64,000 nt of DNA. Origin: a virus. Every line of letters starts with the position of its first letter. Position 1 is the stretch's first letter. The stretch is from the IMG/VR virus record IMGVR_UViG_3300029953_000001; one strand, 5' to 3'. Under the pieces are notes generated by a model. That model did no database searches. It saw nothing but the letters and a program-made list of their open reading frames with translations, and was not told where the DNA came from. This document shows positions 2,344 to 52,302 of the stretch, piece by piece. Both the position numbers and the translations under genes were made by a program.

Positions 2344-2781
2344 TTACTTCTCAGTTTCTACCGGCTCTTCAACCGGTTTTGGTTTGAGTTCGAGGAGGAC
2401 TTGCTTCAAGCGGTAGGGAACCTCATCAGCGGAAAGCTCGATGGGATGAGCCTTACGACGCTTCAGTTCGCGATCCTTGTCCTCTTTGCTGGGCTCAGAC
2501 GCGGCTACAGGTGTCTCTGCGACGACAGGGGTAGACTGGGGGGCTGGGGGAGGGACAAGAGCCACAGCGGGGGTATCGAGTACAGGTTCGATGAACTTGT
2601 TCTTAAGAAAGACCCCGATGCCTAGCGGCTCCTGTTTGACCACCTTCACAATCTGACCATTCCGGTATACGGTGAGTCGATTGTGATTACCCGTGTCATG
2701 CACCAGCACATCTCCCGGACGGACGTAGAAGTGGAAGTCCATGAAATCAATGGTGGTAGTTGCGACGTAACTACGCTGCAT
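2344..2781 (-). CDS. Hypothetical protein (145 aa), Pro/Glu-rich C-terminus
   Basis: Complete ORF in a tight minus-strand array. No recognisable motif. Confidence 0.45.
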   Translation of the reverse strand: MQRSYVATTTIDFMDFHFYVRPGDVLVHDTGNHNRLTVYRNGQIVKVVKQEPLGIGVFLKNKFIEPVLDTPAVALVPPPAPQSTPVVAETPVAASEPSKEDKDRELKRRKAHPIELSADEVPYRLKQVLLELKPKPVEEPVETEK

Positions 2782-2881
2782 CTTGTATCCCCTTATACCT
2801 TACTCAAGTAGGCAATTATGATTCAACACCTACAAAAGGGGGGAATATTGGTAAAAGTAGGTTATAACCCCCTACCCCCTA

Positions 2882-3541
2882 TCAGGAGGGGGTAACATCC
2901 ACGGCTCCGTTCACTATGCTTAGGACGAAGGGTGCTCCTGTTATGCTGTCTAGCACTGTAATCCCGGTTACTCCTAGTTGATAGAACCCATCTAGAGAGC
3001 ACCCCCATAGGTTATTGCCGTTTCCATTACCGTTACTTCCAGTACAGATGAGCCCCGTTTGAAATGTTGGAGCTATGTAGTAACCCACCCTGAAGTAGTT
3101 CTCCCCCGAGCCCAACGTGGTGAAGGGGGAATCTATACCAAGGTTGCCATAACCGTTGGATACCACTGCGATGCATAACTCACTGATGTAGCTGGTAGTG
3201 AGAGGAGGACTCTTCCATATGGCGTCGGGTCCGGCTCCCGATATTAGACTTCCAGTGTCGTAGGCATTGACACCGGAAAACTCCCCTACAGTCATGGCCT
3301 GTACCCCCTCCGAGCCGCTGATGGTTACAGTGGTGGGTCCGCCTACACATCTTGAGCAGTACCAGAGTCCTGTTCCGGTAGCAACCCATGTGTTACCCGC
3401 AGTGTCAGAGCAGGACGAGCCCCCTCCGCTCATCGAGGCTATTAAAAAGTTACCCAACGTGGTGTTGGTTAGATAGGTCAACGACCGAGAGCCTCTACCA
3501 GCAAACCCCACTGAATTTGATTGTACGTATGCTATGGACAT
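2882..3541 (-). CDS. Hypothetical Gly/Ser/Thr-rich protein (219 aa), possibly virion-associated
   Basis: Beta-rich composition with an SNGNGNGNN run. Sits in the structural module. Confidence 0.4.
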   Translation of the reverse strand: MSIAYVQSNSVGFAGRGSRSLTYLTNTTLGNFLIASMSGGGSSCSDTAGNTWVATGTGLWYCSRCVGGPTTVTISGSEGVQAMTVGEFSGVNAYDTGSLISGAGPDAIWKSPPLTTSYISELCIAVVSNGYGNLGIDSPFTTLGSGENYFRVGYYIAPTFQTGLICTGSNGNGNGNNLWGCSLDGFYQLGVTGITVLDSITGAPFVLSIVNGAVDVTPS

Positions 3542-4209
3542 CCGAAGCCGCCTAAACTTGAGTTCTGTATAAGACCTTGGTAGTCTATAAAAGGGACTTC
3601 ATTCCCTTTCTGCAAAATAGTTTGAAATAACTCTTGACAAGAGTGCGGGAATCCCTTAGAAACATAGAGGGGCAACAAACCTCAATCTAGAACGGCTTCG
3701 GAGGCCAGCATGAAATCCACCCCTATTAGCAGGCTTGGGCAGTCGCAAAGCTCTTGTGATTGTGACCGCAGTTGGCAAGCTCCTCATGGATGCCGGTCGA
3801 TGCGCTCCAAGAGTTAGGGTTGCGGACGATAACGCTGTAGGTATGACCGGCTTACCGCATGGCGCGACGGCGCTACTTCGGCCCGCTGGTACAACGCTCG
3901 AATCGAAGACAGCACGGGCCATGAAATCGCCCCTGATGGTTCCCAACTCCCCACCGATCAGGAATGCCGCTGAATTTGAGGGGATGTAACCCATGGGCAA
4001 ATCCACAATCAGCACCTTTCAGCTTTTCGCGATGTTCCCCCGAATACTTGTTCCAAAACACACAAGTGCCCAGTGGAGCTTAGTTTCCACTGGGCACCTA
4101 TGCAGGAGGTAACGATGATGCATAGACTAGGGGTCGTCCAAAACCACAGCCTACAGTAACATAATACTCACAAAAAATGAGTTGATGATTTGTTCTTTCG
4201 TCGTCATAC

Positions 4210-5655
4210 CTAATTAATATTCAGTGAGAAGCGTTTCTTCCCGCTATCCCAAATACGATACCATCCCTTGGCTTCCGCTTCGGATTTCTCATCCATGCCT
4301 GCCTTGACCCTTAGAGCGTACTTGCTTTTACGAACTGAACCGTTGGTGTACGAGTAATCCGGCTTTAACTCCTCTTCGAATGTGAACCCCAGCTTTCCAT
4401 AGAGCCCACCCGTGTGAAACCGATTATCACTAAAGGTGACCATTCGCTTGAATCCCATAGAGCGTAGCTCAGGAAGAGCTAGATGAAGAGCCTTTTCATG
4501 AGGATTCCATGCTTTATATTCATGATTCCAACTAGCCCGATGCCACAGGATGACACCCTCTTCACGTTTCATAAAAACCCATACACCCACAAGTTGGGTA
4601 CCATGGTGGGCAGTCACCGTCAGGCCACCGGATGCGGCTCCGAGGTAATGGTACGCATCTAGAAAGGTTCGAGCTTCAAATGGAGTTTCATGATGGATAG
4701 CAAAAACCGGCTTGATGCGCTTCCCACTCCGGGGTTGAATCATCGAACGTACGAGTGCCTTAACTACATCAGGTTTCTCATTCCACTCATCCTGATAAAT
4801 CTGGAGAAGGCGGGTTGCGCCCTGTTGTAACCACTGAAACTTATCGGCGTCTTTAGACCCTTGAAGGTATCTCTCCGAGTGCCATATCAGTCCATGGTAC
4901 TCAATAGCTAACGAGGCCGAAGGAACGTAGATATCCACTGTATGTCGTCTGGAAAACTGGGGAACCAAAGAGGACAAAGGGACTTCCATCTCTACCGGAA
5001 CGTGGTATTCGTTACGAATGAAATCGGCAATATGGGTGGCTGGAGAGTTCGCCATCATACCCATTCGGTGACATCCACAGGACTTAATCAGTCCTTGTAC
5101 GAGGGAGTCGCCGTAAACCACTGACGTGTTCCCGCAATCACAAGTCACATTCCACTGGTACTTCCCCCCCTGACCCACTCCATGTACAGTCGTTGTCGTA
5201 AGAGCGCCGAACCGCTGCCCTTCTATGTCCTTGAAGTTAGCGAGTGTGGCTTGTTCTCTCATGTAACAACCACATGAAGACGTGTGTCCACTATTCAAGT
5301 GAGCAGTGGATACCAGTGCCATGCCCCCACATTCACAAGAGCACTGCCAGAATGACTGACCGTTATACGACCCCTCGTTACGTTGGTGGTCTAATGTTAT
5401 AACTAGAAGCCGTCCGAATTTCCTGCCCACCATACTGGGGATACGATTCTGGCGACTCTCTTTTACCAGACAACCACATGACTTGGATAACCCTCGCAGC
5501 ACAGAAGCCCACGATATTTCTTTTGTTCCACCGCAGGAGCACACGAACCGATACTTCGTATGAGACACCCTAAGATTAAGAGGTAGGTTCTCCTGCTGAG
5601 GGTCAAGACGAAGTCGGTTCCACTGCATACCCAGCATATCCATACTAATACCCAA
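4210..5655 (-). CDS. Putative homing-type endonuclease: three tandem Zn-ribbon repeats, a Vsr-like PD-(D/E)XK nuclease domain and a C-terminal domain
   Basis: Repeats FVCSCGG..SKSCGC, WQCSCECGG..SSCGC and WNVTCDCGN..KSCGC. Nuclease-like TVDIYVPSASLAIEYHGLIWH...RYLQG...D. Free-standing, immediately downstream of the capsid gene terminator. Paralogous architecture at 33462..34397. Confidence 0.45.
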   Translation of the reverse strand: MGISMDMLGMQWNRLRLDPQQENLPLNLRVSHTKYRFVCSCGGTKEISWASVLRGLSKSCGCLVKESRQNRIPSMVGRKFGRLLVITLDHQRNEGSYNGQSFWQCSCECGGMALVSTAHLNSGHTSSCGCYMREQATLANFKDIEGQRFGALTTTTVHGVGQGGKYQWNVTCDCGNTSVVYGDSLVQGLIKSCGCHRMGMMANSPATHIADFIRNEYHVPVEMEVPLSSLVPQFSRRHTVDIYVPSASLAIEYHGLIWHSERYLQGSKDADKFQWLQQGATRLLQIYQDEWNEKPDVVKALVRSMIQPRSGKRIKPVFAIHHETPFEARTFLDAYHYLGAASGGLTVTAHHGTQLVGVWVFMKREEGVILWHRASWNHEYKAWNPHEKALHLALPELRSMGFKRMVTFSDNRFHTGGLYGKLGFTFEEELKPDYSYTNGSVRKSKYALRVKAGMDEKSEAEAKGWYRIWDSGKKRFSLNIN

Positions 5656-5687
5656 AAAGCGAAGGGACTGAGATTTCTCTCAGTCCC
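5652..5687 (-). terminator. Rho-independent terminator downstream of the capsid gene
   Basis: Perfect hairpin GGGACTGAGA-TTTC-TCTCAGTCCC (5664-5687). On the minus strand it is followed by UUCGCUUUUUGGG. Confidence 0.6.
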
Positions 5688-5711
5688 TTTAACCTTATCT
5701 AGTCACCTAGA

Positions 5712-6668
5712 TTAGTTCTCGCCTACGTTCGGGGAAGCGAAGCGACCACTTACAGTCAGACGCTGTACGCCGGACGGGTTGAAGACCAAGAAGCCGAGGT
5801 TCTCGAAGATGGAGAAACCAATCTGGCGGAGGTCAGGACGGTCTGCACTCATGACGGTTAGCGGGATACGCTCTGGGATGACACCGAGGAACTCAGCGTC
5901 GGCCAGAATGTACACGCAGCCATAACCAACCTTACGGGACTGGAGCAGAGTTGCGCCCCACAGGTAACCCATAACACCGGTCTTCAAGAGCTTGCGCTGT
6001 GTCTCACGGTCGATGTTCTGCTGTGTCCACTTGAGCAAGTCAGTGTAGTCGCGGGGGTTGAAGAAGCAGAAAGCCACCGAGAGGTCGTGACGCTGAACCT
6101 GACCGAAACCATCAGCCATGCTGTTGATGTCGATAGGAGCCGAAATCGCGATGTCCACGTTGTACACGGGGTCGGTCTGCGCCTTGCCTGCTGCGGCAGT
6201 TGCAACCGCGTCAAACAGGGTGAAAACGTAGCCGTCTTCTGCTGCACCGACTTCAGCCTTCGCCAAGTTAAGCGAACGGGCCACGAGGTCGAAGCGGCGT
6301 TCCTTAATCTGGGTGATAGGAATCATCGGGTTGGATACGATTTCGAACGTCGGAACCGTAACACGCTTCGGCTTTGTCACGCGAACGATGTCACCACCTT
6401 CTTCACCGACGACGAAGGCTTCCACGAAGCTACCACCGGGGGCCGAGCCCACAGTCATAGCAGCAGTGTCAAATTCCTTATCGTAGATGGGCAGAGCACC
6501 ATCGGGCAAAGTCTCAACCATCAGCGCCTTACGGGCGATGGACATATAGTCACGACGACGACGAAGTGACGGGCCAAGCGAGGCAGCAAGCTTCTGACGA
6601 CCACCGGCAGTCTTAAGCAACTGTCCGAGCATCGCGGTCTGCTGCTGTGTGCGAGAAAGATTAGCCAT
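5712..6668 (-). CDS. Putative major capsid protein (318 aa)
   Basis: Strong RBS AAGGAAAAGGAAT-ATG; a strong terminator follows. Gene order acidic scaffold-like protein, small head protein, this gene matches a head module. No diagnostic motif, so the call is positional. Confidence 0.4.
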   Translation of the reverse strand: MANLSRTQQQTAMLGQLLKTAGGRQKLAASLGPSLRRRRDYMSIARKALMVETLPDGALPIYDKEFDTAAMTVGSAPGGSFVEAFVVGEEGGDIVRVTKPKRVTVPTFEIVSNPMIPITQIKERRFDLVARSLNLAKAEVGAAEDGYVFTLFDAVATAAAGKAQTDPVYNVDIAISAPIDINSMADGFGQVQRHDLSVAFCFFNPRDYTDLLKWTQQNIDRETQRKLLKTGVMGYLWGATLLQSRKVGYGCVYILADAEFLGVIPERIPLTVMSADRPDLRQIGFSIFENLGFLVFNPSGVQRLTVSGRFASPNVGEN

Positions 6669-7607: not shown

Positions 7608-8306
7608 GTGAACTACCTATACCTTAGTATGTTCATATACCTAGTTACCAACACGATAAACGGCAAAGCCTACATTGGAAAAACCTCGAAAACCGTCAAG
7701 GGACGGTGGGAAACCCACCTTCAGAACGCAAAGATGGGGTTGCCCTACCATCTATACCGAGCTATTCGAAAGTATGGGGTTGACGCTTTTCATGTACAGA
7801 CTATCGCAGAATGTAATAACTCAGAACAGTTGAGCGAGTTGGAGAAGATGTGGATTTTGTTACTAGGTACTCACAGCACCAAATATGGGTACAATATGAC
7901 CTATGGAGGTGAGGGGGTTACCGGAACTGAGGAGGTGCGTGAAAAAATTAGACAAAAGGCCATGGGTCGGATTCCGTCTAAAAAACAGAGAGCAGTTGCG
8001 TCAGCCCTCTTCAAGGGTAAGCCAAAGCCTATAATTCAGCGGAAGAAAATGGCTGCTTGGTGGGATGAGACCACACCTATAGGCCAAGCTAGACGTAGTA
8101 AACAGGCGTTGGTAGCCCGTCGCGTCAATGACATTGAAAACAAGAAACTGAAGGACTACCTATGCCCTGACTGCGGGAATGAGTTTGAGCAAGTTACCAA
8201 AGGCGTATACGGTGGGCACCGTAAGGCGTGCCTACACTGGAAGAGAATGTCTGAGATTGTCGAAGAAGAAATTGGGCTGACCCTAGACGAGGTACTAGAC
8301 TCCTAG
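7608..8306 (+). CDS. GIY-YIG homing endonuclease (I-TevI/Seg-like)
   Basis: YIYLVTNTINGKAYIGKTS...R..H..YGYNMTYGGEG, then a basic C-terminal DNA-binding region ending in a CPDCG Zn finger. Plus-strand island in a minus-strand module. Confidence 0.8.
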   Translation: MNYLYLSMFIYLVTNTINGKAYIGKTSKTVKGRWETHLQNAKMGLPYHLYRAIRKYGVDAFHVQTIAECNNSEQLSELEKMWILLLGTHSTKYGYNMTYGGEGVTGTEEVREKIRQKAMGRIPSKKQRAVASALFKGKPKPIIQRKKMAAWWDETTPIGQARRSKQALVARRVNDIENKKLKDYLCPDCGNEFEQVTKGVYGGHRKACLHWKRMSEIVEEEIGLTLDEVLDS

Positions 8307-32065: not shown

Positions 32066-33481
32066 TTACTCCGCGTCCTGAAAGTAGTCGAAGCTGGCTG
32101 CGGTACTGCGAACCTCATCCAGCGTGAAATCCTTCTTCAGTTCGCCGTTGAGGAACACGGTCTTGAGGTAGTTGCCGTAGCTGTCCTCTTCCGTGGTGTC
32201 GATAGTACGCCAGCCGCCGTCGCTGTTGAACAGGTTGAAGCGGCCACCGATGGATGCCTTCGAAGAATCCGTCTTCGGGTTCTTGAAGACCGGACTCCAC
32301 TGCCCTGCCCGGTTGATGGCCGAGCACTTGATAGCAAAGCGCATCGTGTCGCGGTTCTGCTGCTGCAACAGGGCACCGCCCATGCCGTAGCCCCAGTTGT
32401 CCATCGACCAACCCGACCGGGTGAGGGAGGAGTTGATGCGAAGGATGTTCTGATAGTTCACGCCGTCGCCCTGAATCGCACGAATCTGTGCCGGGAGAAC
32501 CTTGTAGCCCTTGGCGTTGGTCTCGAAGCCGAACTTCTCCGCAACTGCGTTGAAGATGTCTTCGAGGACAACCACAGGGTCACCTGAGTCCGGGCGAAGC
32601 ACGACAGTACCGTCCCGACGCAGAACCTTCTCACGAAGCTGGTTGCCGAAGATTTCAGCGACCGCGTTGTGCGTGTCGTAGCTGTCAACCACGCACGCGA
32701 GAAGCGCAGTGGGCGACTTGTCGAGCATGTTCTCGTAGGCATCACGCTCGTTAGCCTGACCCCATGACGTGACCGTGCTGTGTTCCATAGCAGGGATAGA
32801 GAACCCCGGCATATCCTTGGCTCCGTAATAGTCACGTAGCAGTATGGCCGCTTCCATCGTGTCTGAGCCCATGAAGTTGACCAGATGTGCTGCTCCGCCG
32901 ATAGCCGCCGATTCTTGCGAGGAGACGCCACGGGCTCCAAAGTCATGCAGCTTGAACGGCAAGCCAGCAGGAGTTCCGGTGCGAACCAAGTCCTTGCCAA
33001 TTTCCTGCTTGATGTGCCATGACAGGGTGCCGACCGTGATGGGGTACCATGTTCCTCGGAGGATGATGGTCTCCGCCCAGTTTGTCAGCCAAGGAAACTC
33101 ATCATCCGTGTTCTCAATGGTCAGCAGGGCGTTCTTCACAGAAACAACTGTACCCTCCGGCACCGCACGAATCTTGAGGGGAAGGCGACCGTCGTGCTTC
33201 TCCAGCAACCTGAGCCAACCCGTCGTATTGAATACCTTATCGGAGCCAAAGTGAGCCGCCGCAAATGCTTGAGCCTCGTCTACGTCTTCCTTAGTGAAGA
33301 CCTTACCGACCAAGTAGGTCTTGAGGGTGTACTGAAGACCGAAGAACATCGTGTCCTTCCAAAAACCTCCGCGAGACATAAGGTGGGAGTAAATAGTTCG
33401 AGTATCTGGGGGGTACTGAAAATGGTGGGAAAGCTTGTAACTGTCCGTTGTCAGTAGGGGGTTAACTCTCAGTTTTTGCAC
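32066..33481 (-). CDS. nadV: Nicotinamide phosphoribosyltransferase (NadV/NAMPT)
   Basis: N-terminus LLTTDSYKLSHHFQYPPDT, typical of NAMPT. Length 471 aa. Internal GARG/DSYD segments. Confidence 0.8.
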   Translation of the reverse strand: MQKLRVNPLLTTDSYKLSHHFQYPPDTRTIYSHLMSRGGFWKDTMFFGLQYTLKTYLVGKVFTKEDVDEAQAFAAAHFGSDKVFNTTGWLRLLEKHDGRLPLKIRAVPEGTVVSVKNALLTIENTDDEFPWLTNWAETIILRGTWYPITVGTLSWHIKQEIGKDLVRTGTPAGLPFKLHDFGARGVSSQESAAIGGAAHLVNFMGSDTMEAAILLRDYYGAKDMPGFSIPAMEHSTVTSWGQANERDAYENMLDKSPTALLACVVDSYDTHNAVAEIFGNQLREKVLRRDGTVVLRPDSGDPVVVLEDIFNAVAEKFGFETNAKGYKVLPAQIRAIQGDGVNYQNILRINSSLTRSGWSMDNWGYGMGGALLQQQNRDTMRFAIKCSAINRAGQWSPVFKNPKTDSSKASIGGRFNLFNSDGGWRTIDTTEEDSYGNYLKTVFLNGELKKDFTLDEVRSTAASFDYFQDAE

Positions 33482-34397
33482 TTGTTTTCTCCTTCAAAAA
33501 AGCCTTTACATCATTTATGAAGAACGGGATTCTCACCATTTGGTATCCGTTATCTTCCGCCCACTGGTCTTTCAACTTGTCCAAACTTCGTATGCGTTCC
33601 AAGTCCTCGGGCTTCTTCCCTGTCAATACCTTGTAATGCTGTGCTCCATCAAATTCAATGAGTAGCTTCATCCCCTCAACACAGAAGTCATACCGTAGAT
33701 GGCGACCTGACTTTGGGTTTATGAGTCCGGGGAAACACTTCTGTGGTTTGTACTTCCAACTCCACGCTTCCAAACACTTTCTAACTTCCTCCTCGCCCCA
33801 CGAATAGTACCGTGAAAAGCATTTTGGACAACCTGCACCCCGAAGATGATTACTCGCCAGTTGTTTAAAGTCCCCATGCACCTTACATGTAATGGTAACC
33901 GATTTCAAAGAGTAGGTGTAACCTAGTCGGTCATAACCATAGCGGTCACCGTGGAGCCTTCGAGCTTCGATGATGAAATCTTCGGGGGACTTACGCTTTT
34001 TATCGCTCCTCTGTACTATCCCACATTTTGGACAGCCACACCCATTCAAATGGTTATTCGGGGTCATCTCAAACCCCCCGTGAACCGGACAAAGAATTGT
34101 TACTTTGTCCAAAGTTGTGGTTCGGTATACAACGTTGGAATAGTCGTATAGATCACCATGCTTCTTCCTTGCTTTCTCGATGAACTTCTCAGTCGTTGAT
34201 GTTGCTTCCTTCCGAGCACATTTAGGACAGTTCTGGCCCACTCTGTGACATGAGGGGAGTTGCCAAAACACACCATGTTCTCGACACACAATTTCTACCT
34301 TGCTACGTTTGTTTTTGTACACCAACCGGGAGTAATCATACCGCTCTCCGTGTACCTGTTGCACTGCTACCAAATACTCCTGTGTCGTCATACCCAC
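33462..34397 (-). CDS. Putative homing-type endonuclease: three YDYS/Zn-ribbon repeats plus a Vsr-like PD-(D/E)XK nuclease domain
   Basis: Repeats ..YDYS.V.Y...V.I.C..HG.F......H..G.GCPKC three times. C-terminal YDFCVEGMKLLIEFDGAQHYK...R.....D.....G. Same architecture class as 4210..5655. Confidence 0.45.
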   Translation of the reverse strand: MGMTTQEYLVAVQQVHGERYDYSRLVYKNKRSKVEIVCREHGVFWQLPSCHRVGQNCPKCARKEATSTTEKFIEKARKKHGDLYDYSNVVYRTTTLDKVTILCPVHGGFEMTPNNHLNGCGCPKCGIVQRSDKKRKSPEDFIIEARRLHGDRYGYDRLGYTYSLKSVTITCKVHGDFKQLASNHLRGAGCPKCFSRYYSWGEEEVRKCLEAWSWKYKPQKCFPGLINPKSGRHLRYDFCVEGMKLLIEFDGAQHYKVLTGKKPEDLERIRSLDKLKDQWAEDNGYQMVRIPFFINDVKAFLKEKTSAKTES

Positions 34398-34601
34398 CTC
34401 TAACTAAGGGGTGGGTATTGCAAACAGTAACTTAGTTTATTCTCAAATACCTATTCCTTGACACGTAACCCAGCCCTAGCAGCCCTGTGCCCAGCAGCAG
34501 CAAGGAGGAAGGCTCAGGAGTCGGGGCTGGGATGGGGACAGCGAAGGTGTCCAGTGGCGTGACTGACAGGCTTACGATCCCCCCTTCGGGTGTGTCCCCA
34601 C

Positions 34602-35009
34602 TCATGAATGAAATCCAGTCCAGCCCGTCCGCCTCAAAGCCCTCCGAAGTGCGTGTAAGTCCAGCGTATAGGGAATACTCCAGACCGCGTTGTAGCCCGT
34701 AAATGCAACCCCCGTCGCCGCCTCAAACCACGGGCTGGAAGCAGTCAACACGTTGTTGTTGAATGTCGTACCGGGGGCTGACAACACCATGGAGGCAGTA
34801 TGCTGGGCATCCGATATCACACCCGTGAGTCCTGTGATAATTCCGGCTGAATTGGTTGTGAAGGTTCCGCGTCCTGCGAGGGGTAGATAGGGGATACCGT
34901 CAGGCGTGTCGGCTGAATTGAAGAAAAAAGAATACTGACTGGCAGAGGCTGCTGGAGTTCCTAGTACAACCATCAAGGTCAAGGCAAAAGAAAGTAGGGC
35001 GGTTTTCAT
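34602..35009 (-). CDS. Secreted hypothetical protein with Sec signal peptide (MKTALLSFALTLMVVLGTPAASA)
   Basis: Classic n-h-c signal with an ASA cleavage site. Confidence 0.45.
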   Translation of the reverse strand: MKTALLSFALTLMVVLGTPAASASQYSFFFNSADTPDGIPYLPLAGRGTFTTNSAGIITGLTGVISDAQHTASMVLSAPGTTFNNNVLTASSPWFEAATGVAFTGYNAVWSIPYTLDLHALRRALRRTGWTGFHS

Positions 35010-35056
35010 TGTTTTATCCCTTTCATTATTTTATTTAGTTCCCAAGAAACCTCTGG

Positions 35057-36058
35057 TTATTTCAATCCTTCCGCTGCGAGTTCCTTGGGCGTCATGTGCG
35101 TGTAGGTGACGTTCATCCGGCCAACCTCGATGGTGTCCCACACGTACAGGCCGAAGTGCTTGTACACGACGGGGAAGACACTCTCCCGGTGCGTGTCGAT
35201 GAGCAGTTCTGCCTTCATCTGGTCGATGGGAAACCACTTAACCTCTTCAATGTCATCGCCAGCAATCGCATTGAGCGAGGGTGACTCCGCCGCGAAGACG
35301 AGCGACTTGATTTGGTCGGGCTCCCCTTTCCACCGCCAGTCAGGGATGAGAGCAGAGCCGATGAACTGAGGTTCATTCACCACGAGGCTGGTCTCCTCCA
35401 TGGCTTCACGGGCAGCGTCGTACTCGTAGCTGGGGGTGTAGGGCTCAGAGAAGCCACCGATGAACCGCCACTGCGTCTCACCCGGCTTGCGACCGAGCAG
35501 GAACAGCGTTTTGGTGTCGTCGTTCTCCGGCTTGTGGTAAATCACCACGTCCACCGTCGCCTTCACAGCAGGACGGATGTTGGTCATGGCGTAGATGACG
35601 CCAGCACGGAACTCCGGGGACTCCATGACCGTGTTGGTAATTTTCGCACGGATGGTGGTGCCGCTGATGCCGTCGAGCGTGTTGGGGAGAGTCAGTTCAA
35701 TCGGCTTGTACGCCCCATGGTAGTGCGGTACGAAAGAATCGCGAGAGCCGTACAGCGTCACGTCGCCGTAGTCCACTACGTCACGAATAGCCCTGTCCAA
35801 GTTCCGCGACCACGTTGCATCTTCCTTGGTGTCGGTGAGGGGGAAAATCATGAAGTCGGGATACGCAGCCTGAACCATCGCCTTGCGAGTCTCGAAGTCG
35901 AGGGGGTTGTTGTAGGTCGAGCCAATGGACTTCTGACCGAGGAACAGAATGACCTTGCTGTGCCGTGCCCTTACTTCATCGAACAGGGCTCTGTGTCCAG
36001 CGTGAAGAGCATCGACTTGGCAGCGTGCGACAAGAACGCCGTAGTTAGGCTTTTGCAT
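35057..36058 (-). CDS. natV: Bifunctional NMN adenylyltransferase / Nudix hydrolase (NatV-like)
   Basis: N-terminal nucleotidyltransferase HxGH (VLVARCQVDALHAGHRALF). C-terminal Nudix box GGFSEPYTPSYEYDAAREAMEETSL. Confidence 0.75.
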   Translation of the reverse strand: MQKPNYGVLVARCQVDALHAGHRALFDEVRARHSKVILFLGQKSIGSTYNNPLDFETRKAMVQAAYPDFMIFPLTDTKEDATWSRNLDRAIRDVVDYGDVTLYGSRDSFVPHYHGAYKPIELTLPNTLDGISGTTIRAKITNTVMESPEFRAGVIYAMTNIRPAVKATVDVVIYHKPENDDTKTLFLLGRKPGETQWRFIGGFSEPYTPSYEYDAAREAMEETSLVVNEPQFIGSALIPDWRWKGEPDQIKSLVFAAESPSLNAIAGDDIEEVKWFPIDQMKAELLIDTHRESVFPVVYKHFGLYVWDTIEVGRMNVTYTHMTPKELAAEGLK

Positions 36059-46352: not shown

Positions 46353-46483
46353 GTTAAGGATGTTCTGTGTCCGGTACACTGTGTAAAACCGGGTTGTAGC
46401 TTTCTTATAGTTTCTCATGAACCTATCAACCTCTCAGATGCTGAGGAGCTAACCTCTACTAAAGAGGTTGATAGTCACGAAAG

Positions 46484-46564
46484 AGCTACGAGAGGGATTC
46501 GAACCCCCGGTGTTTGTATGCCGCATTACAAGTGCGGTGCATTCGACCACTCAGCCATCGTAGC
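46484..46564 (-). tRNA. tRNA, anticodon arm CCGCA-CUUGUAA-UGCGG (UGU, Thr-like); atypical 81 nt with extra ACAAACA insert before the T-arm
   Basis: Perfect acceptor GCTACGA/TCGTAGC. T-arm GGGGG-TTCGAAT-CCCTC. No encoded CCA. Confidence 0.45.
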
Positions 46565-46570
46565 ATACCT

Positions 46571-46840
46571 TTACATTTTTACAAAAGAGAGTACCGGTAC
46601 ATCTGGGTAGCTCTCCCTGACTTCTTTATTCCAAACCTCGTGCCTTGCATGACATTCTGAACAGTAGAACGCTCCCGCATCGAAGGAGTGGTCTTGATAA
46701 TCACTCGACCAACCCCCTGTGCCGGGAGGGCACCAGAACTCAGCCGAGTTTTCACATCTCCCCTTGTAGTTCTCAATGTCCGTGGATACAAACCCCACAG
46801 ACTCCGGTACGCCCATGCATTGAATCTTCAAATCGGTCAT
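46571..46840 (-). CDS. Hypothetical Cys-containing protein (89 aa)
   Basis: Complete ORF. Confidence 0.35.
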   Translation of the reverse strand: MTDLKIQCMGVPESVGFVSTDIENYKGRCENSAEFWCPPGTGGWSSDYQDHSFDAGAFYCSECHARHEVWNKEVRESYPDVPVLSFVKM

Positions 46841-46848
46841 GTATCCTC

Positions 46849-47156
46849 TTACTTATACTTCGGGAAGAATCCAAAGTTCTTGGGGTACTCTTCTCTCGGT
46901 ATGAAAACGATTGCAACTTCTTGTCCGTTCAACGTGGACTCGGTGATGACTTGATGCTTCGGCACTTCCTTCGCCTTCTCGAACTCCTCGTCGGTTACCT
47001 TGCACACAACCTTGGCGAAGGACGTTTGCAGCCACTTGACCATATCCGGGTCGGTGGGGAAGTTCAGGTAGAGCGACAGAGGCCCGTGTGCTGCGGCCAC
47101 GATGGCGTTACCTACCGGGATGGAGCCCTTCACCAAAACGTACATCTTCAATTTCA
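46849..47156 (-). CDS. PTH2-like peptidyl-tRNA hydrolase candidate (about 102 aa; true start at the internal Met, MKLKMYVLV...)
   Basis: The listed ORF 46849..47448 runs through two tRNA genes, so the start was re-assigned to ATG at 47154-47156 (GAGG 9 nt upstream). KMYVLVKGSIPVGNAIVAAAHG and KVVCKVTDEEFEKAKE...VAIVFIP follow the PTH2 pattern. Confidence 0.4.
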
Positions 47157-47246
47157 TGCTGGCCTCGTGTATGAGTCCGATAGGGCTCATTGGACTCATA
47201 TATGAAGCACTAAAGCCGTTAGTGCTCCATATATGGGACTTTATCT

Positions 47247-47319
47247 TGGTGGGCACTTCGGGAGTTGAACCCGAATCACCGTTTCCCTTGGCAGGGTGCC
47301 ACGGTGAACCAATGTGCCC
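47247..47319 (-). tRNA. tRNA-like gene with encoded CCA, good acceptor and T-arm but no canonical anticodon arm (pseudo-tRNA?)
   Basis: GGGCACA...TCGGG-TTCAACT-CCCGA-AGTGCCC-A-CCA. No 5-bp/7-nt anticodon stem-loop in the middle region. Confidence 0.3.
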
Positions 47320-47325
47320 GAATCT

Positions 47326-47412
47326 TGGTTGGGGAGGCAGGATTCGAACCTGCAATGAGCTTACGCTCGGGGGCTTCAAAGGCCCTTGACCTACCATTGG
47401 TACGACTCCCCA
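47326..47412 (-). tRNA. tRNA, 87 nt with encoded CCA and a long variable arm (GAGC-GTAA-GCTC); U1:A72 Gln-like acceptor; anticodon read as UUG (alternative parse UGA)
   Basis: TGGGGAG ... AGGGC-CUUUGAA-GCCCC ... GCAGG-TTCGAAT-CCTGC-CTCCCCA-A-CCA. Confidence 0.5.
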
Positions 47413-47417
47413 ATAAC

Positions 47418-47651
47418 TTATGCTGTGACCAAATCCTTCGGAGGCCACTCAAACTTCCAGTTGCTCCGCTCACGAATCTTGTTATCGCGAATGTTGTAGA
47501 ACCCGGCGTACGCTGCACACGTGATAGAGCAGAACACAGGATGACTCAGGTCGTCCGGCATCTCAACCATCTGAGGCCCACGTGGGGTGTCAGGGTCTTC
47601 GTGATGACGCCGATAATCTGCACAACCGGGTGCTGGACACGCAATCAACAT
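47418..47651 (-). CDS. Small Cys/His protein (77 aa), same frame as and 3 nt downstream of the RNA ligase TGA
   Basis: CPAPGC...H...C..TC. ATG at 47649-47651. Confidence 0.35.
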   Translation of the reverse strand: MLIACPAPGCADYRRHHEDPDTPRGPQMVEMPDDLSHPVFCSITCAAYAGFYNIRDNKIRERSNWKFEWPPKDLVTA

Positions 47652-47654
47652 AGC

Positions 47655-48254
47655 TCACTCCCAGTACAGCCTATAGTTCGTTCCGTATACTTCGTTCAAC
47701 TTCTTGAAGAAGGCATCGGTCTTTATCTTGACCATGAAATCGTCACCCTTGGCGACGACGCCTTCCCACACTGGATACTTTCCGCTGCGGACATCATCAA
47801 CGAACTGCTTGTTGAGGTTGCCCTCGTAAACCACTTCAGCCGCGTATGGCAGGTCTCCGTACTGCTTGAGAAACTGCCGGGGCGACATCATCCCCTTCTT
47901 GAACAGGTACACATCGAACAAGCGAAGCTGCTTAGGCTCCCCCGGCGTATGCACACCCGCGAAACTTGAGTCCCCGAAGAACTCTGTGAAGACCGTGGTC
48001 CTCTGGCAGTTCCGGTCGTAGTCCTTCACCCGGCGAGTCAACTCATCTGCCATGGTATCCATGAAGACCGGAATCGCTTCACCGAAGACCGGGTTGCTCT
48101 TGTCGAACAACTCATGTCGGGTACCAAACTTGAACCAACCCTTCTTGGGGTTCCACTCCCAACGAAGGTTCGAGCCATCGTACTTGTAGAAAGCGATGCA
48201 CTGCTTACCTAGAGGGGCTTTGGAACTTCCTTCGATACTTGGGTACTGCTCCAT
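47655..48254 (-). CDS. RNA ligase-like nucleotidyltransferase (Rnl family)
   Basis: Motif I KYDGSN (adenylylation Lys), FTEFFG, DVYLF, motif V EGVVAKGDD, then KIKTD. 199 aa (NTase domain only). Confidence 0.55.
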   Translation of the reverse strand: MEQYPSIEGSSKAPLGKQCIAFYKYDGSNLRWEWNPKKGWFKFGTRHELFDKSNPVFGEAIPVFMDTMADELTRRVKDYDRNCQRTTVFTEFFGDSSFAGVHTPGEPKQLRLFDVYLFKKGMMSPRQFLKQYGDLPYAAEVVYEGNLNKQFVDDVRSGKYPVWEGVVAKGDDFMVKIKTDAFFKKLNEVYGTNYRLYWE

Positions 48255-48522
48255 ACATCCCTTTCAATTTCTCCAATACCACTTCCATAATCAGGGAGTG
48301 GTTTATGAAATGCCTTCAATGTGATACCGACACGAGTAATCCAAAGTTCTGCTCCAACAAGTGACCATATTGATGGAAATTACATGAACAACCATCGTAA
48401 TAACTTGCGGTGCAACTGCCCAAACTGCGATATACAACTACCTACGTCAAAAGGGGAAGAACCGAGGCAACGGTAGGCATTGGCGTCGAGTTCGTTATGC
48501 GGAGGGTAAGTCCCGCTAAAAA

Positions 48523-48598
48523 TGGAGCCGGTTGAGGGACTCGAACCCTCTGCCTTTTGCTTACCAAGCAAATACACATCCATATATGCTTAACCGGC
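48523..48598 (-). tRNA. tRNA-Thr (anticodon GGU), CCA encoded
   Basis: GCCGGTT...TTTGC-UUGGUAA-GCAAA...GAGGG-TTCGAGT-CCCTC-AACCGGC-T-CCA. Confidence 0.6.
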
Positions 48599-48604
48599 CT
48601 TTCT

Positions 48605-48808
48605 TTACTTACAACAGCGACTAATCTGCTTATCAAGTTCCTGTGCAGTCTCGTGCGCTTTTTCAAAAAACTCATCAACATCTTCGGAGTAGGTGACTCC
48701 GTGAAGCAGAGCACGTCGCCGCTTGTCCTCTGCTACGTTGTGGCGAAGGTTCTCCAGCATCTGCTGAGCGATTGCTGCTGCGGCCTCATCCAAGTTTTCC
48801 ATACTCAC
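48605..48808 (-). CDS. Small hypothetical protein (67 aa) between tRNA genes
   Basis: Complete ORF. Confidence 0.3.
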   Translation of the reverse strand: MSMENLDEAAAAIAQQMLENLRHNVAEDKRRRALLHGVTYSEDVDEFFEKAHETAQELDKQISRCCK

Positions 48809-48823
48809 CTAATACTGCGAAAC

Positions 48824-48906
48824 TGGAGCTAGGTGAGGGACTCGAACCCTCGGTGTTTGTATACCGCTTTACGAAAGCGGTGCCGTCGCCACTGAGCCAA
48901 CCTAGC
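48824..48906 (-). tRNA. tRNA with CCA; anticodon arm CCGCU-UUCGUAA-AGCGG (CGU, Thr-like); atypical ACAAACA insert like the 46484 gene
   Basis: Acceptor GCTAGGT/ACCTAGC. T-arm GAGGG-TTCGAGT-CCCTC. Confidence 0.45.
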
Positions 48907-49423
48907 CTAATGTAAATTCTTCGTCATGGGTTTCAAGATGGCAGTTGGCACAGAGGAGGTCGCACTTATCCAACTCCTTCATCAACCGAGCCCAAGCCCA
49001 CGTCATCTTCCCTGCGATGCTAAACTCCTTTTGTTCTGGGTCTCTATGGTGGAAACTTAGAACCCGCATTGACTTACAATATCCGCACGATTGGCACTTA
49101 CCCCCTTTGTATTCAACACAACGTCTCTTTACCCGAGTCCGTTGCCTATTAGCAACACAAGAGTTGCATAAAGTCAGGGTGTGACCCTGCTTCTTGGCGA
49201 ACACATACACCCTAAAACAACGGGTACAGATTAGTGAAGCACCTTCACGCTTTACACTTACAACGACAAGACTTCCATCGTCATCCCGGCGTAAAGACCG
49301 AGTGTTGTGTGCCCCGAACGGGGAGCAGACTAAGCAATACTTTCGACGTTGGAGGTTCCGTTCAACCCCGTCGATAACCACCGTGAGTGGTATGTCTGAG
49401 CTACAAAGTGTACAAGTTCTCAT
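48902..49423 (-). CDS. HNH homing endonuclease (173 aa)
   Basis: C-terminal SFHHRDPEQK....DLLCANCH, plus Cys clusters. Confidence 0.65.
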   Translation of the reverse strand: MRTCTLCSSDIPLTVVIDGVERNLQRRKYCLVCSPFGAHNTRSLRRDDDGSLVVVSVKREGASLICTRCFRVYVFAKKQGHTLTLCNSCVANRQRTRVKRRCVEYKGGKCQSCGYCKSMRVLSFHHRDPEQKEFSIAGKMTWAWARLMKELDKCDLLCANCHLETHDEEFTLG

Positions 49424-49556
49424 GTATCAGAACTCTATAGCTCAATTTTTATACTTACTTTTACTCTAACCCACTAAGCTGGTTGGCGAGGGGAATTTTG
49501 AAATCCCAACCTCATTCTTATCAGGAATGCGCTCTTCCTTTGAGCTACTCGCCATT

Positions 49557-49633
49557 TGGTGTACCCGGAGGGACTCGAACCCCCGTAATGCTCAGTAATC
49601 GGCTGAGTGCCATAGCCACTAGGCGACGGGTAC
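49557..49633 (-). tRNA. tRNA with CCA; anticodon arm CTCAG-CCGAUUA-CTGAG (GAU, Ile-like; unusual C33)
   Basis: Acceptor GTACCCG/CGGGTAC. T-arm GGGGG-TTCGAGT-CCCTC. Confidence 0.5.
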
Positions 49634-49638
49634 AAACT

Positions 49639-49905
49639 TTACATCTTCTCTAACAAACTCTTTGCTGCTGCATCGTACTGCCATGGGTCCCAGTACCCGT
49701 TGAACCCGGCCCCGACCAACATTCCGAGGCTGTCAACTTTCTGCTCTTTCCAATCTCTGTCCTTCGGGACGAAGCCACAATCCTTGAGGATGTGAATCGC
49801 CGCCGTCGTGCGACCGAGAGGCCCGAACTTCTGCCCCGCTTCCTCTACCCCTCGCCAGTGGTGCCTAGCGAACCGGTGGAGCGCCGAACTTCTTGAACAG
49901 GTCAT
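49639..49905 (-). CDS. Hypothetical protein (88 aa)
   Basis: Complete ORF. Confidence 0.3.
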   Translation of the reverse strand: MTCSRSSALHRFARHHWRGVEEAGQKFGPLGRTTAAIHILKDCGFVPKDRDWKEQKVDSLGMLVGAGFNGYWDPWQYDAAAKSLLEKM

Positions 49906-49986
49906 CCATCCACCCGTTCACTGCCTCGCATCTGTTGCCCAAGAGGCGGTCACAATCCCTGCAATGCTCTTCCCATGCTGCCATGC

Positions 49987-50265
49987 TTATCTCCCGTAAC
50001 GAGCTTGTATCCCATCTATTACTCTGAGACAGCGGACTCTACGGCGGAGCCAGTTGCGTGCTGCGAATTTCTTTCCAGTGTTCTTGGGCAGGTTCAAGAG
50101 AAGAGAATACTCGGAGGGGTCATAGCGGTGATAGCTGACACCGTACCCTCTCCCGCGAAACTCTAAAATTGCCCGGTTGCACCGTTCTGCTAACGTCATC
50201 TTTGCTGTGACTTTCATACCCTCTCCAAAACACCAAAGCCGCCCTGTTGGGCGGCTCGTATACAT
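49987..50265 (-). CDS. Hypothetical basic protein (92 aa)
   Basis: Complete ORF. Confidence 0.3.
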   Translation of the reverse strand: MYTSRPTGRLWCFGEGMKVTAKMTLAERCNRAILEFRGRGYGVSYHRYDPSEYSLLLNLPKNTGKKFAARNWLRRRVRCLRVIDGIQARYGR

Positions 50266-50644
50266 CGAAGAATTTTTGACTGGTTAGTCTTCAATCCCTC
50301 CGCACACGAAGCCGCAGACGCTGGTTTGCGTTGTGGTAGTTGTAATTCGTGTTTGAGCGGAAAGACGCATTTTCAGAATCCGGTATTCCTATGGTATTTT
50401 GGTGCCGGAGGACAGGTTGCCCTATCACTCCGGCTTGGAGCCCTATCCAAGTTTGACCTCAGGTAGGGCATGGCCCGGAAGGTAAATTTTACTTTACCTC
50501 CCAGATGGTGGCTGAACTAAGGTCTCCCTCAGTCCAACCGTCTACATACATAATACACACAAAGTCAGAAAAGTGAACACTTATTTTTGAATTATTCGGA
50601 AATATTATTCTGGCAGTGCTCCCGGATGATTTTGATGGCATCTT

Positions 50645-51286
50645 TCACCCGTTGTTTCTCGGCCTCCGTGGTGCAGGTCGGCAGGACTTGCTGACCGGTC
50701 TTACGGATACCCGCCATGACGACTGCAAGGTGGTGCTCAGCGTAAGGATGCTGTCACGCACCGTGCTCATGACGTGGGTATCGTTGGCCGCATCCGTTGC
50801 ACGGCTGGAATCAGGGTAGATGAGTCCGGTACCAGTGCGGTCAGTGCGATGACCGACAAGCTTCACGCGACTCTTGTGGTAGTCGCTGCTAACCCACACA
50901 GTACCACGTTCCTTCAAACCGGGCAGAGTCCATACATGGGCACCCCACAGGAATCCCAAAAATTCCGAAGATTCCTCGCTGGCAGGAGCATAGTCCCTAT
51001 AAGTCGCTGCCATCACGTTATTATATGCCGGGGCATCGTCAGGGTGCAGCCACATGTTGGCGACGAGGAGGTTGTCCTTGTGGATTTCTCCGAAGGCGTT
51101 GGCAAGCATAGCAATAGAGAACACCTTAGGCTCCATAGCATCGAGGGGGAAGACATAGCTGTGGTAGCCCCTATCGGAGGCAAGGAGTTTAGGAGCGACA
51201 GCGAGAGTTACCCCTGCGGCACCGGCTGTGAGAAGGAACTTACGACGGTTCATAGATACCTCAATCCTTGATGCTGTATTGTACAC
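50645..51286 (-). CDS. Tat-signal protein (213 aa), third paralogue
   Basis: MNRRKFLLTAGAAGVTLAVAP, then MWLHPDDAPAYN. The C-terminal tail looks low-complexity, so a frameshift or alternative end is possible. Confidence 0.45.
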   Translation of the reverse strand: MYNTASRIEVSMNRRKFLLTAGAAGVTLAVAPKLLASDRGYHSYVFPLDAMEPKVFSIAMLANAFGEIHKDNLLVANMWLHPDDAPAYNNVMAATYRDYAPASEESSEFLGFLWGAHVWTLPGLKERGTVWVSSDYHKSRVKLVGHRTDRTGTGLIYPDSSRATDAANDTHVMSTVRDSILTLSTTLQSSWRVSVRPVSKSCRPAPRRPRNNG

Positions 51287-51686
51287 CAGACCATAGTCCA
51301 GTGCTCACTTCTTCAAGCTCTACTCCACGTACCCGGAGGAGTTCCACCGCTGCCTGTCTGGCAACACGTTCAAACTCACGGGACGCTTCACCCCGGCTAC
51401 ACACGTTGCAACTCTCGAAGTGTCCGCACAGGCACCCACCGGCATAGTAGTTGGCGACCTTGAGCACTTCCGCATTAGTCGGCCCGGACTTCGGCTTAGC
51501 GATGTGGACGCGGTAGTAAGCAATCGCATCTGCAACTTCATCGCCGTACTTGTCTTCCATCTCAGCGAACTCGGCGGCTGTTACCGTGTGACCTCGCATG
51601 TGCGACTGGATGATGTCAAGACATCGCTTATGGTTCACGCGGTCTCCTGCTCCAACTTCTTTGCGAGGATGTCCATCCACAGCCAA
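51261..51686 (-). CDS. Hypothetical protein (141 aa)
   Basis: Complete ORF. Small overlapping ORFs 51635..51934 and 51892..52164 follow on the same strand. Confidence 0.35.
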   Translation of the reverse strand: MAVDGHPRKEVGAGDRVNHKRCLDIIQSHMRGHTVTAAEFAEMEDKYGDEVADAIAYYRVHIAKPKSGPTNAEVLKVANYYAGGCLCGHFESCNVCSRGEASREFERVARQAAVELLRVRGVELEEVSTGLWSGVQYSIKD

Positions 51687-52228
51687 TCCATGGTTGACCG
51701 CAACTCAGTATCACCCTCATGGTCAGGGTCGTCGTCCATCATGAACTCATTGTAGACAGGGGCTAGTTCCGCTTGTTCCTCAGGCGTGAACTTGGCGATG
51801 ACTTCGCGGGGCATGTCATTGCAGCCATGGTTGCTGTACGTGTCTGCCGCCATGCGAAGCAGCATCGCCGCGAGTTTCTTCTCTGCTGGTTTCATGCGAG
51901 TCTCCAATCTTCTCCACGTAGGTGTAGAAGCCACTGAGCTTCCGACAGTTCAGCTTGAATGAGACGGTGGACTTGGGTGGCAGGGCACGCCTGAGAGTAA
52001 CCAGAACCAAGGCAGTGGCTCCCGCTGAAACGGGCACCCTCTCTACACTCAGGGCACACGGCCTTCGCCGCTTCCTTCAGGATTTCAATCCGGGTCTCGT
52101 TCCTCTTTTTGAATCTCATGACCGCCCCAATCTCTGTTGAAACCACTCCATGAAGTTCCGCCATACGATGACCGGAAGCGGGAGTTGGTCTTTCTGCATG
52201 TGGTTCAGTAAGGCGAAGGGCATAATTT

Positions 52229-52302
52229 TGGTGCTCCCGGCAGGGTTCGAACCCGCGTCTCTTAGGTTAGAGCTAAGGGCACAGCCGCTATACCACGGGA
52301 GC
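52229..52302 (-). tRNA. tRNA with anticodon CUA (reads UAG amber), compact 74 nt with encoded CCA
   Basis: GCTCCCG-TG-GTAT-AGCGGCT-GTGC-C-CTTAG-CUCUAAC-CTAAG-AGAC-GCGGG-TTCGAAC-CCTGC-CGGGAGC-A-CCA. Perfect 7-bp acceptor, perfect 5-bp anticodon stem, U33 and A37 in place. Confidence 0.5.

Follow-up and report, generated by a model that had tools for sequence, protein, structure and literature searches.

The window analyzed here, a 64,000-nucleotide (nt) stretch of viral DNA from IMG/VR virus record IMGVR_UViG_3300029953_000001, carries two open reading frames (ORFs), ORF A and ORF B, that are likely free-standing homing endonuclease genes (HEGs) of a jumbo (giant soil) phage of >400 kb. Both had been singled out in a reading made from the sequence alone (hereafter the sequence-only reading), which described them as paralogous proteins with three zinc-ribbon repeats and a Vsr-like nuclease block and proposed a possible new homing endonuclease architecture. 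The coordinates given there for the two ORFs were confirmed, and both are intact and lie on the minus strand. The genes at the two loci are the following:

4210..5655, minus strand: ORF A, predicted Hef-like homing endonuclease gene (mechanical ORF of 481 amino acids, aa)
5712..6668: major head protein gene, neighbor of ORF A (phrog_2522, E 5e-42)
32066..33481: nadV (nicotinamide phosphoribosyltransferase), neighbor of ORF B (phrog_448, E 2e-153)
33462..34397, minus strand: ORF B, predicted free-standing homing endonuclease gene (311 aa; probable start ATG 34391)
33482..35056, minus strand: 1.57-kb insert with ORF B and a split PEP-CTERM gene, between natV and nadV
35057..36058: natV, encoding a bifunctional nicotinamide mononucleotide adenylyltransferase/Nudix protein

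The anatomy of ORF A was established from an alignment of 31 homologues (A1) together with an AlphaFold2 model with a mean predicted local distance difference test (pLDDT) score of 88.4. The protein consists of five units, namely three zinc repeats, a nuclease domain in the middle and a GNAT domain at the C-terminus (E-values of the repeats refer to hidden Markov models, HMMs):

5467..5643, minus strand: zinc repeat 1, aa 5-63 (C39, C41, C60, C62; repeat HMM E 2e-16)
5263..5433, minus strand: zinc repeat 2, aa 75-131 (C107, C109, C128, C130; repeat HMM E 5e-13)
5056..5238, minus strand: zinc repeat 3, aa 140-200 (C172, C174, C193, C195; repeat HMM E 4e-21)
4723..5049, minus strand: Vsr-like / EDxHD-type nuclease domain, aa 203-311 (D241, E252, H254, G255, H259, D269, K272)
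4216..4719, minus strand: C-terminal GNAT, Mom-like domain, aa 313-480 (H336, Y337, R373, D410, R412, Y419)

ORF B, which is without the Mom-like domain, is made up of four units:

34215..34391, minus strand: zinc repeat 1, aa 3-61 (C38, H41, C57, C60; HMM E 8e-23)
34023..34199, minus strand: zinc repeat 2, aa 67-125 (C103, H106, C122, C125; HMM E 1e-25)
33816..33995, minus strand: zinc repeat 3, aa 135-194 (C171, H174, C190, C193; HMM E 2e-27)
33504..33803, minus strand: Vsr-like / EDxHD nuclease, aa 199-298 (E202, D237, E248, D250, G251, H254, D273, K276)

Family HMMs detect exactly three tandem repeats in each ORF (E 1e-13 to 1e-27 each) and no further repeat matches elsewhere in the window. 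The repeat sites of ORF A, CxC-x18-CxC, are true Cys4 sites whose cysteine columns are invariant or almost so in A1. The repeats of ORF B belong to the treble-clef DUF723/DUF4379 type and bind through a Cys3His arrangement (C-x2-H-x15-C-x2-C), with zinc-site columns that are invariant in the homologue alignment; its own Pfam scores fall just under threshold (DUF723, 20.4 against 20.9; DUF4379, 20.7 against 24.5), and nearly all of its homologues have precomputed matches to PF05265 or PF14311. The sequence-only reading, which had seen three tandem Cys4-type repeats of about 30 aa in both proteins, was therefore correct as to their number, but the repeating unit measures ~60-65 aa, with a metal-binding core of only ~25 aa, and the Cys4 type applies to ORF A but not to ORF B.

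Both proteins share the Vsr-like block D..E-x-[HD]-G-x-x-x-H..D-x-x-K, and profile comparison assigns to both an EDxHD-class (Vsr-like) putative catalytic domain that is homologous to I-Bth0305I and Vsr. The A1 profile matches the structure of I-Bth0305I (PDB 3R3P) with E 2.3e-5, six members of the ORF A family match Pfam REase_MTES_1575, and the domain models as a nuclease fold. D241, E252 and G255 are invariant across 154 aligned family sequences; the catalytic set as a whole (D, E, G, H, D and K) is invariant or almost so in this alignment. The EDxHD motif positions in ORF A are D241, H254, H259 and D269, with His208 replacing the first Glu, and all five are present in ORF B (E202, D237, D250, H254, D273). 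The Vsr-like block with which both proteins had been thought to end is thus real in both; in ORF A, however, it constitutes a middle domain (aa ~203-311), and the ~170-aa Mom-like GNAT domain that follows it at the C-terminus had been overlooked. An NCBIfam search with both proteins gave no match, and useful comparison with solved structures came only from family profiles and fold searches; by sequence, the A2 profile found in PDB only a weak match to AbaSI (E 0.12). A reading of ORF A as part of a defense system is unsupported, as the PADLOC models returned for it a weak 'HEase' match alone.

The relationship between the two proteins is confined to part of their length. Their nuclease domains are homologous (hhalign probability 97.6%, E 2.7e-12), which upholds the term 'paralogous' for this domain, but the repeat profiles are not related (hhalign probability 0.3%, on which we rejected a common origin of the zinc modules) and BLASTP between the whole proteins finds nothing significant. 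Both ORFs match phrog_559, the 'homing endonuclease' families matched being phrog_559, phrog_3339 and phrog_9084, and ORF A matches the 'HNH/homing endonuclease' families phrog_559, phrog_374 and phrog_3339 with E 1e-31 to 1e-34. More than 1000 phage records match ORF B, and in many of its homologues a GIY-YIG nuclease replaces the Vsr-like one. In tblastn searches, aa 109-480 of ORF A are ~24-29% identical to phage proteins annotated as 'Hef-like homing endonuclease' or 'homing endonuclease', with matches in AR9 (g188), PBS1, PTm1, Campylobacter phages (including Hef168), Dickeya phage LIMEstone (F-LimVII), PA5oct and phiL7 (p15); the last 167 aa alone also match annotated Hef-like proteins. 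In phrog_559, phiL7 p15 and AR9 g188, fingers of the ORF B type are joined to a nuclease plus Mom-like core of the ORF A type. By these matches ORF A is assigned to the Hef-like family, in which the Vsr-like nuclease and the Mom-like GNAT domain would form an invariant core with an interchangeable front end.

These family assignments bear directly on whether the window holds an unrecognized homing endonuclease architecture with two paralogues in one genome, as was first proposed. The Pfam copy searched has no curated model for the CxC-x18-CxC repeat of ORF A, and phmmer matched no solved structure in PDB with either whole protein or with the C-terminal 167 aa of ORF A; both observations would fit such a proposal. 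Both architectures are nevertheless already represented in PHROG families, in hundreds to thousands of annotated phage genes, including the Hef-like matches of ORF A and the >1000 records for ORF B, and in the literature, since bacteriophage Hef-type homing endonucleases were added in 2011, on the basis of their nuclease domain, to the Vsr-like EDxHD family (Taylor et al., 2011; PMC3239194), and they are therefore not new. In addition, the two front ends are unrelated and the A-type zinc module is also found with HNH nucleases (phrog_374 and the relative L087 described below). We thus consider a novel architecture highly improbable. What does hold of the earlier description is that in both ORFs an EDxHD-type nuclease is combined with a front end unlike that of I-Bth0305I, zinc repeats taking the place of NUMOD and helix-turn-helix (HTH) elements.

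The C-terminal domain of ORF A reaches block-mean pLDDT values of 93-98 in the model, and the solved GNAT folds closest to aa 313-480 include Mom of phage Mu (PDB 8bv8), a tRNA-Gly-dependent DNA adenine aminoacyltransferase (PMC13219725). Of the PDB matches, 8bv8 shows the highest identity and the longest alignment, bar one multi-domain artefact. Alignment of the A1 profile with Mu Mom by hhalign gave E 3.8e-4 and a probability of 36%. The Pfam Mom model (PF25680) does not match ORF A itself at E<=1; one family member (P0099) scores above the threshold of this model (37.2 against 27.1 bits) and three other members score below it. The putative active site of Mom comprises H58, Y59, R111, S124, D149, R151 and Y159; S124 is essential, the S124A mutant being inactive (PMC13219725), and R111 is reported as specific to Mom and not general to GNATs (PMC7261163). 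The equivalences listed here were taken from the hhalign profile alignment, not from structural superposition, with conservation counted over 73 family members that are 26-58% identical overall:

H336, equivalent to Mom H58: conserved in 73/73
Y337, equivalent to Mom Y59: conserved in 67/73
R373, equivalent to Mom R111: conserved in 73/73
E387, equivalent to Mom S124 (essential): Glu in 52/73, Ser in 9/73
D410, equivalent to Mom D149: conserved in 71/73
R412, equivalent to Mom R151: conserved in 67/73
Y419, equivalent to Mom Y159: conserved in 72/73, the remaining sequence being gapped

ORF A accordingly keeps six of the seven Mom active-site residues in the profile alignment, E387 standing in the place of S124. 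The domain is widespread: when 1.84 billion cluster representatives were searched, 2071 clusters matched it at E<=1e-3, which sets the size of the Hef-like family with a Mom-like domain at a minimum of about 2000 clusters at 50% identity. Among the 150 best representatives of the Mom-like domain, 137 also carry the Vsr-like domain and the rest are mostly short fragments; the Mom-like domain forms the extreme C-terminus, and the front ends are of the A type in 41 cases, of the B type in 10, of both types in two and of other kinds in 83. In a metagenomic protein of 511 aa (P0362) the order is reversed, the Mom-like domain spanning aa 54-228 and a Tox-REase-7 / TnsA-like nuclease following it (aa 302-358), a further sign of a functional link between Mom-like and restriction-endonuclease-fold domains. 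We found no literature linking Mom, GNAT or acetyltransferase to Vsr, Hef-like proteins or homing endonucleases, although full-text coverage was incomplete and an earlier mention is possible.

The most economical reading of this domain is that it helps to engage and position the double-stranded DNA target, through DNA binding, possible base flipping and/or dimerization; Mom itself is a dimer acting on double-stranded DNA (PMC7261163, PMC13219725). The retention of Mom-type active-site residues makes it possible, on sequence conservation, that the domain has a catalytic role. The Hef-like proteins might then be bifunctional, coupling to the nuclease an active Mom-type DNA base-modifying domain (aminoacyl-tRNA- or acyl-donor-dependent adenine modification) that would, for example, mark and protect the carrier's own target sites, which would amount to restriction-modification logic in one selfish protein, or recognize or flip a specific adenine at the target. 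Consistent with such bifunctionality are the conservation of the six equivalents in 67-73 of 73 members, among them that of the Mom-specific R111, the rank of 8bv8 among the PDB matches, the passing of the Pfam Mom threshold by P0099, and the association of the two domains in 137/150 representatives as well as, in reversed order and with Tox-REase-7, in P0362. The replacement of the essential serine, which is retained in only 9/73 members, speaks against it, as do the missing Pfam Mom match of ORF A, the 36% hhalign probability and the fact that the donor substrate cannot be inferred, and we regard an active modifying domain as unlikely on balance. The preferred role in target engagement has its own difficulty, which is taken up below.

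Evidence for mobility comes from comparison of the two loci with those of relatives. Megablast searches with both 12-kb neighborhoods gave no match among INPHARED phages; as there is no close cultured relative in this collection, IMG/VR loci were compared instead. For ORF A the sample consisted of 80 IMG/VR relatives with head proteins 88-97% identical to that of the window. An ORF A homologue is present downstream of the head gene in seven of them, immediately so in L009-L012 and farther away in L001, L040 and L045, and five further relatives show short repeat-region matches only, several kb upstream of the head gene. The site is empty in L002 and L005, where ~86 bp separate the head gene from a homologue of a 145-aa gene, and in L009-L011 this position is filled by exactly an ORF A homologue of 1.41 kb. 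In the window, ORF A is accompanied at this locus by an additional spacer of 0.67 kb and an ORF of 219 aa, and the relatives' DNA similarity to the window stops at the head gene stop codon. The other side of the head module carries a further nuclease gene, so that the module is bracketed by two homing-endonuclease-like genes:

7608..8306, plus strand: GIY-YIG / SegE-like nuclease gene, antisense to its neighbors (Pfam GIY-YIG E 1.6e-10)

A neighborhood of the same kind is seen in the T4-like Escherichia phage vB_EcoM-RPN226 (L081), in which a 503-aa ORF A homologue at 2422..3933, with a REase_MTES_1575 match and a partial Mom match, lies between the genes for gp24 (capsid vertex) and gp23 (major capsid). 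Several ORF A homologues have longest contigs of identical length (P0006, P0008 and P0015, 105,205 bp; P0013 and P0023, 135,141 bp; P0029 and P0038, 342,765 bp), so that the genomes of related jumbo phages may each hold more than one member of the ORF A family.

At the second locus natV directly abuts nadV, without the insert and without ORF B, in 17/17 relatives that span the junction. At the natV-nadV junction of L087 there is instead a 213-aa nuclease of the HNH/EndoVII type (5376..6017, plus strand; phrog_1035, E 2e-21) carrying a single ORF-A-type CxCxCG...SCGC zinc module, which makes this site a hot spot at which nucleases of different kinds are found and shows that the A-type module is shuffled between nuclease classes. 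The insert of the window also holds a split PEP-CTERM secreted-protein gene (34432..35009, minus strand), whose two ORFs overlap by ATGA and encode a 135-aa part with a signal peptide and a 57-aa part with the sorting domain (TIGR02595, 25.1 bits, cutoff 16). This gene is absent from all relatives compared at natV-nadV; for a phage it is an unusual cargo, one that hints at an exosortase-bearing host.

The proposal that both genes are free-standing insertions, beside the capsid gene and nadV, respectively, is borne out by these empty sites. Neither gene is fixed at its locus, ORF A being present in 7/80 relatives and ORF B in 0/17, and on this comparative evidence both can be taken as mobile insertions. 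Comparison with relatives lacking the insertion, which the sequence-only reading had suggested as a means of defining the homing site, thus delivered empty alleles but not the target site. An intron- or intein-associated origin was considered and rejected, since no Rfam intron families were found at gathering score and both ORFs lie between genes.

The distribution of the genes also bears on whether they encode domesticated nucleases that are no longer selfish and would serve the phage by excluding co-infecting relatives or satellites, by degrading host DNA or by setting recombination boundaries. In other phages nuclease genes are located at boundaries of genetic exchange (PMC10448857), and the exact break of DNA conservation at the capsid stop beside ORF A, the GIY-YIG gene flanking the capsid module on its other side and the intactness of both ORFs, with all family-invariant residues, would agree with domestication. 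Against this, ~70/80 relatives for ORF A and 17/17 for ORF B are without the gene at the locus, a sporadic presence that argues against a conserved phage function; moreover, marker exclusion is a normal result of homing endonuclease activity, so that this explanation, which we judge quite improbable, overlaps with homing itself.

In our view both proteins are likely to be site-specific endonucleases, spreading through the repair of double-strand breaks; cleavage, a target site, homing and expression control are what we infer for both ORFs. In this scheme the three tandem zinc repeats would read an extended DNA target, as suggested by other phage HEGs, whose zinc-finger arrays are modular, and the Vsr-like, metal-dependent domain of the I-Bth0305I class (EDxHD) would cut the DNA, probably in dimeric form like I-Bth0305I. 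In a mixed infection, a break in the genome of a phage lacking the gene would be repaired from the carrier genome, and the repair would copy the HEG, together with flanking markers, into the intergenic site, namely that following the major head gene in the case of ORF A and the natV-nadV junction in that of ORF B.

Several observations sit less easily with this scheme. A purely structural or DNA-binding role leaves the near-invariance of the Mom-type residues unexplained. ORF A has His208 at the first EDxHD position, where Glu is found in 47 of the 87 sequences with a residue there (154 aligned). The capsid of L009 shares 95% identity with that of the window, but its ORF A homologue at the same site shares only 54%, which points to an old or an independent occupation of this site and not to recent transfer between these genomes. 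The target site could not be defined computationally, the DNA from the capsid stop to ~2755 being non-homologous to that of the relatives. Finally, the Hef-like assignment is based on annotated examples of a family whose prototype is Hef of the T-even phage U5 (Sandegren et al., 2005), an experimentally described homing endonuclease (PMC2988022).

The proteins can be set against four known systems. With the Hef-like family ORF A shares the nuclease and Mom-like core as well as a free-standing position beside conserved structural genes, as seen in the Tequatrovirus homologue between gp24 and gp23; AR9 g188 and phiL7 p15 differ from it in having fingers of the DUF723/DUF4379/CapR type in place of the three CxC-x18-CxC repeats, and ORF B is only a partial relative of the family, matching through nuclease and fingers alone. 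I-Bth0305I (PDB 3R3P) is a homodimer with a footprint of ~60 bp that leaves 2-nt 5' overhangs (PMC3239194). Equivalents of its D196, N208, H213 and D222 are conserved, but it is intron-encoded, has an N-terminal NUMOD/HTH region and lacks a GNAT domain, whereas the window proteins are free-standing and carry zinc repeats, and ORF A has a His at the first Glu position. Mu Mom (PDB 8BV8) resembles the C-terminus of ORF A in its GNAT fold and in the conserved H-Y, R, D-x-R and Y active-site positions; it differs in being a stand-alone protein of ~231-241 aa, the ORF A domain being the C-terminal part of a nuclease, and in having S124 where ORF A has Glu. Tandem fingers of the DUF723/DUF4379/CapR kind have been described as modular DNA-binding domains of homing endonucleases (Barth et al., 2023; PMC10448857), and the T5orf172 / GIY-YIG HEGs with such fingers have the same kind of zinc-finger array as ORF B, whose nuclease, unlike theirs, is Vsr-like.

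As jumbo-phage HEGs both genes are ordinary, being new members of known families, for which empty and filled alleles are documented at two intergenic hot spots and whose zinc-finger front ends are shuffled among Vsr-like, HNH and GIY-YIG nucleases. Of wider interest is the consistent pairing, in the Hef-like family, of the nuclease with a Mom-like domain in which active-site residues are strongly conserved. Were this domain active, abundant phage elements would contain a natural fusion of a nuclease and a DNA modifier, which would constitute a previously undescribed homing endonuclease logic and a second biological context for Mom chemistry, itself worked out only in 2023-2026.

Candidate expression signals surround both ORFs, as listed here with predicted folding free energies (dG):

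5654..5689, minus strand: hairpin and T-run resembling an intrinsic terminator of the capsid gene, directly upstream of ORF A (dG -28.7 kcal/mol, z -4.1)
5645..5651, minus strand: GTATTAG, candidate phage promoter/leader motif just before the ORF A start
4161..4167, minus strand: second GTATTAG copy, just after ORF A
3545..4160, minus strand: spacer of ~0.6 kb downstream of ORF A, following the second motif copy
34390..34418, minus strand: RNA hairpin pairing the ORF B Shine-Dalgarno sequence (GAGGUGG) and the AU of the start codon (dG -21.7 kcal/mol, z -4.2)

The capsid-terminator hairpin has a counterpart after the capsid stop in the relatives L002 and L009. The mechanical start of ORF A, TTG 5655, falls within the T-run of this terminator, which makes ATG 5643 or ATG 5628 the probable true start. 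Public gene calls use ATG 5628, giving a product of 472 aa (P0001), and the identical 472-aa protein is found on at least 23 metagenomic contigs of up to 432 kb. For the hairpin that buries the Shine-Dalgarno sequence and start of ORF B we infer a regulatory role; it resembles the control by sequestration of the ribosome-binding site known for homing endonuclease genes of T4 and Aeh1.

The motif GTATTA[GT] occurs 14 times in the window, always on the minus strand, against 6.9 occurrences expected over both strands (sites include 933, 4167, 5651, 15331, 44867 and 50556), and about half of these sites have the upstream context AACTTTGC-N7-TTTnTGG. The motif, which also flanks the ORF A homologue in L009, is a candidate phage-specific promoter. 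No credible ORF lies in the spacer at 3545..4160, which also lacks similarity to relatives; it gave no Rfam match at E<=1 and a fold z-score of -1.6. A very stable hairpin with a T-run lies at ~4055..4098, and the enclosing 131 nt (4040..4170) fold with dG -51.4 kcal/mol and z -4.4. The spacer may represent either a short transcript or the remains of a decayed gene.

Elsewhere in the window two further RNA features were noted:

46483..52302, minus strand: tRNA cluster (Thr-tgt, Gln-ttg, Thr-ggt, Thr-cgt, two Ile-gat and one with a CTA anticodon)
56280..56680, minus strand: permuted transfer-messenger RNA, tmRNA (Rfam RF04321, 85 bits; tag ANSNVALPIAA)

Several tRNAs of the cluster are unusually long (82-87 nt), and the one with the CTA anticodon, at 52229..52302, is amber-reading. 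Stop-codon usage in this phage of >400 kb may be related to its suppressor tRNA and its tmRNA.

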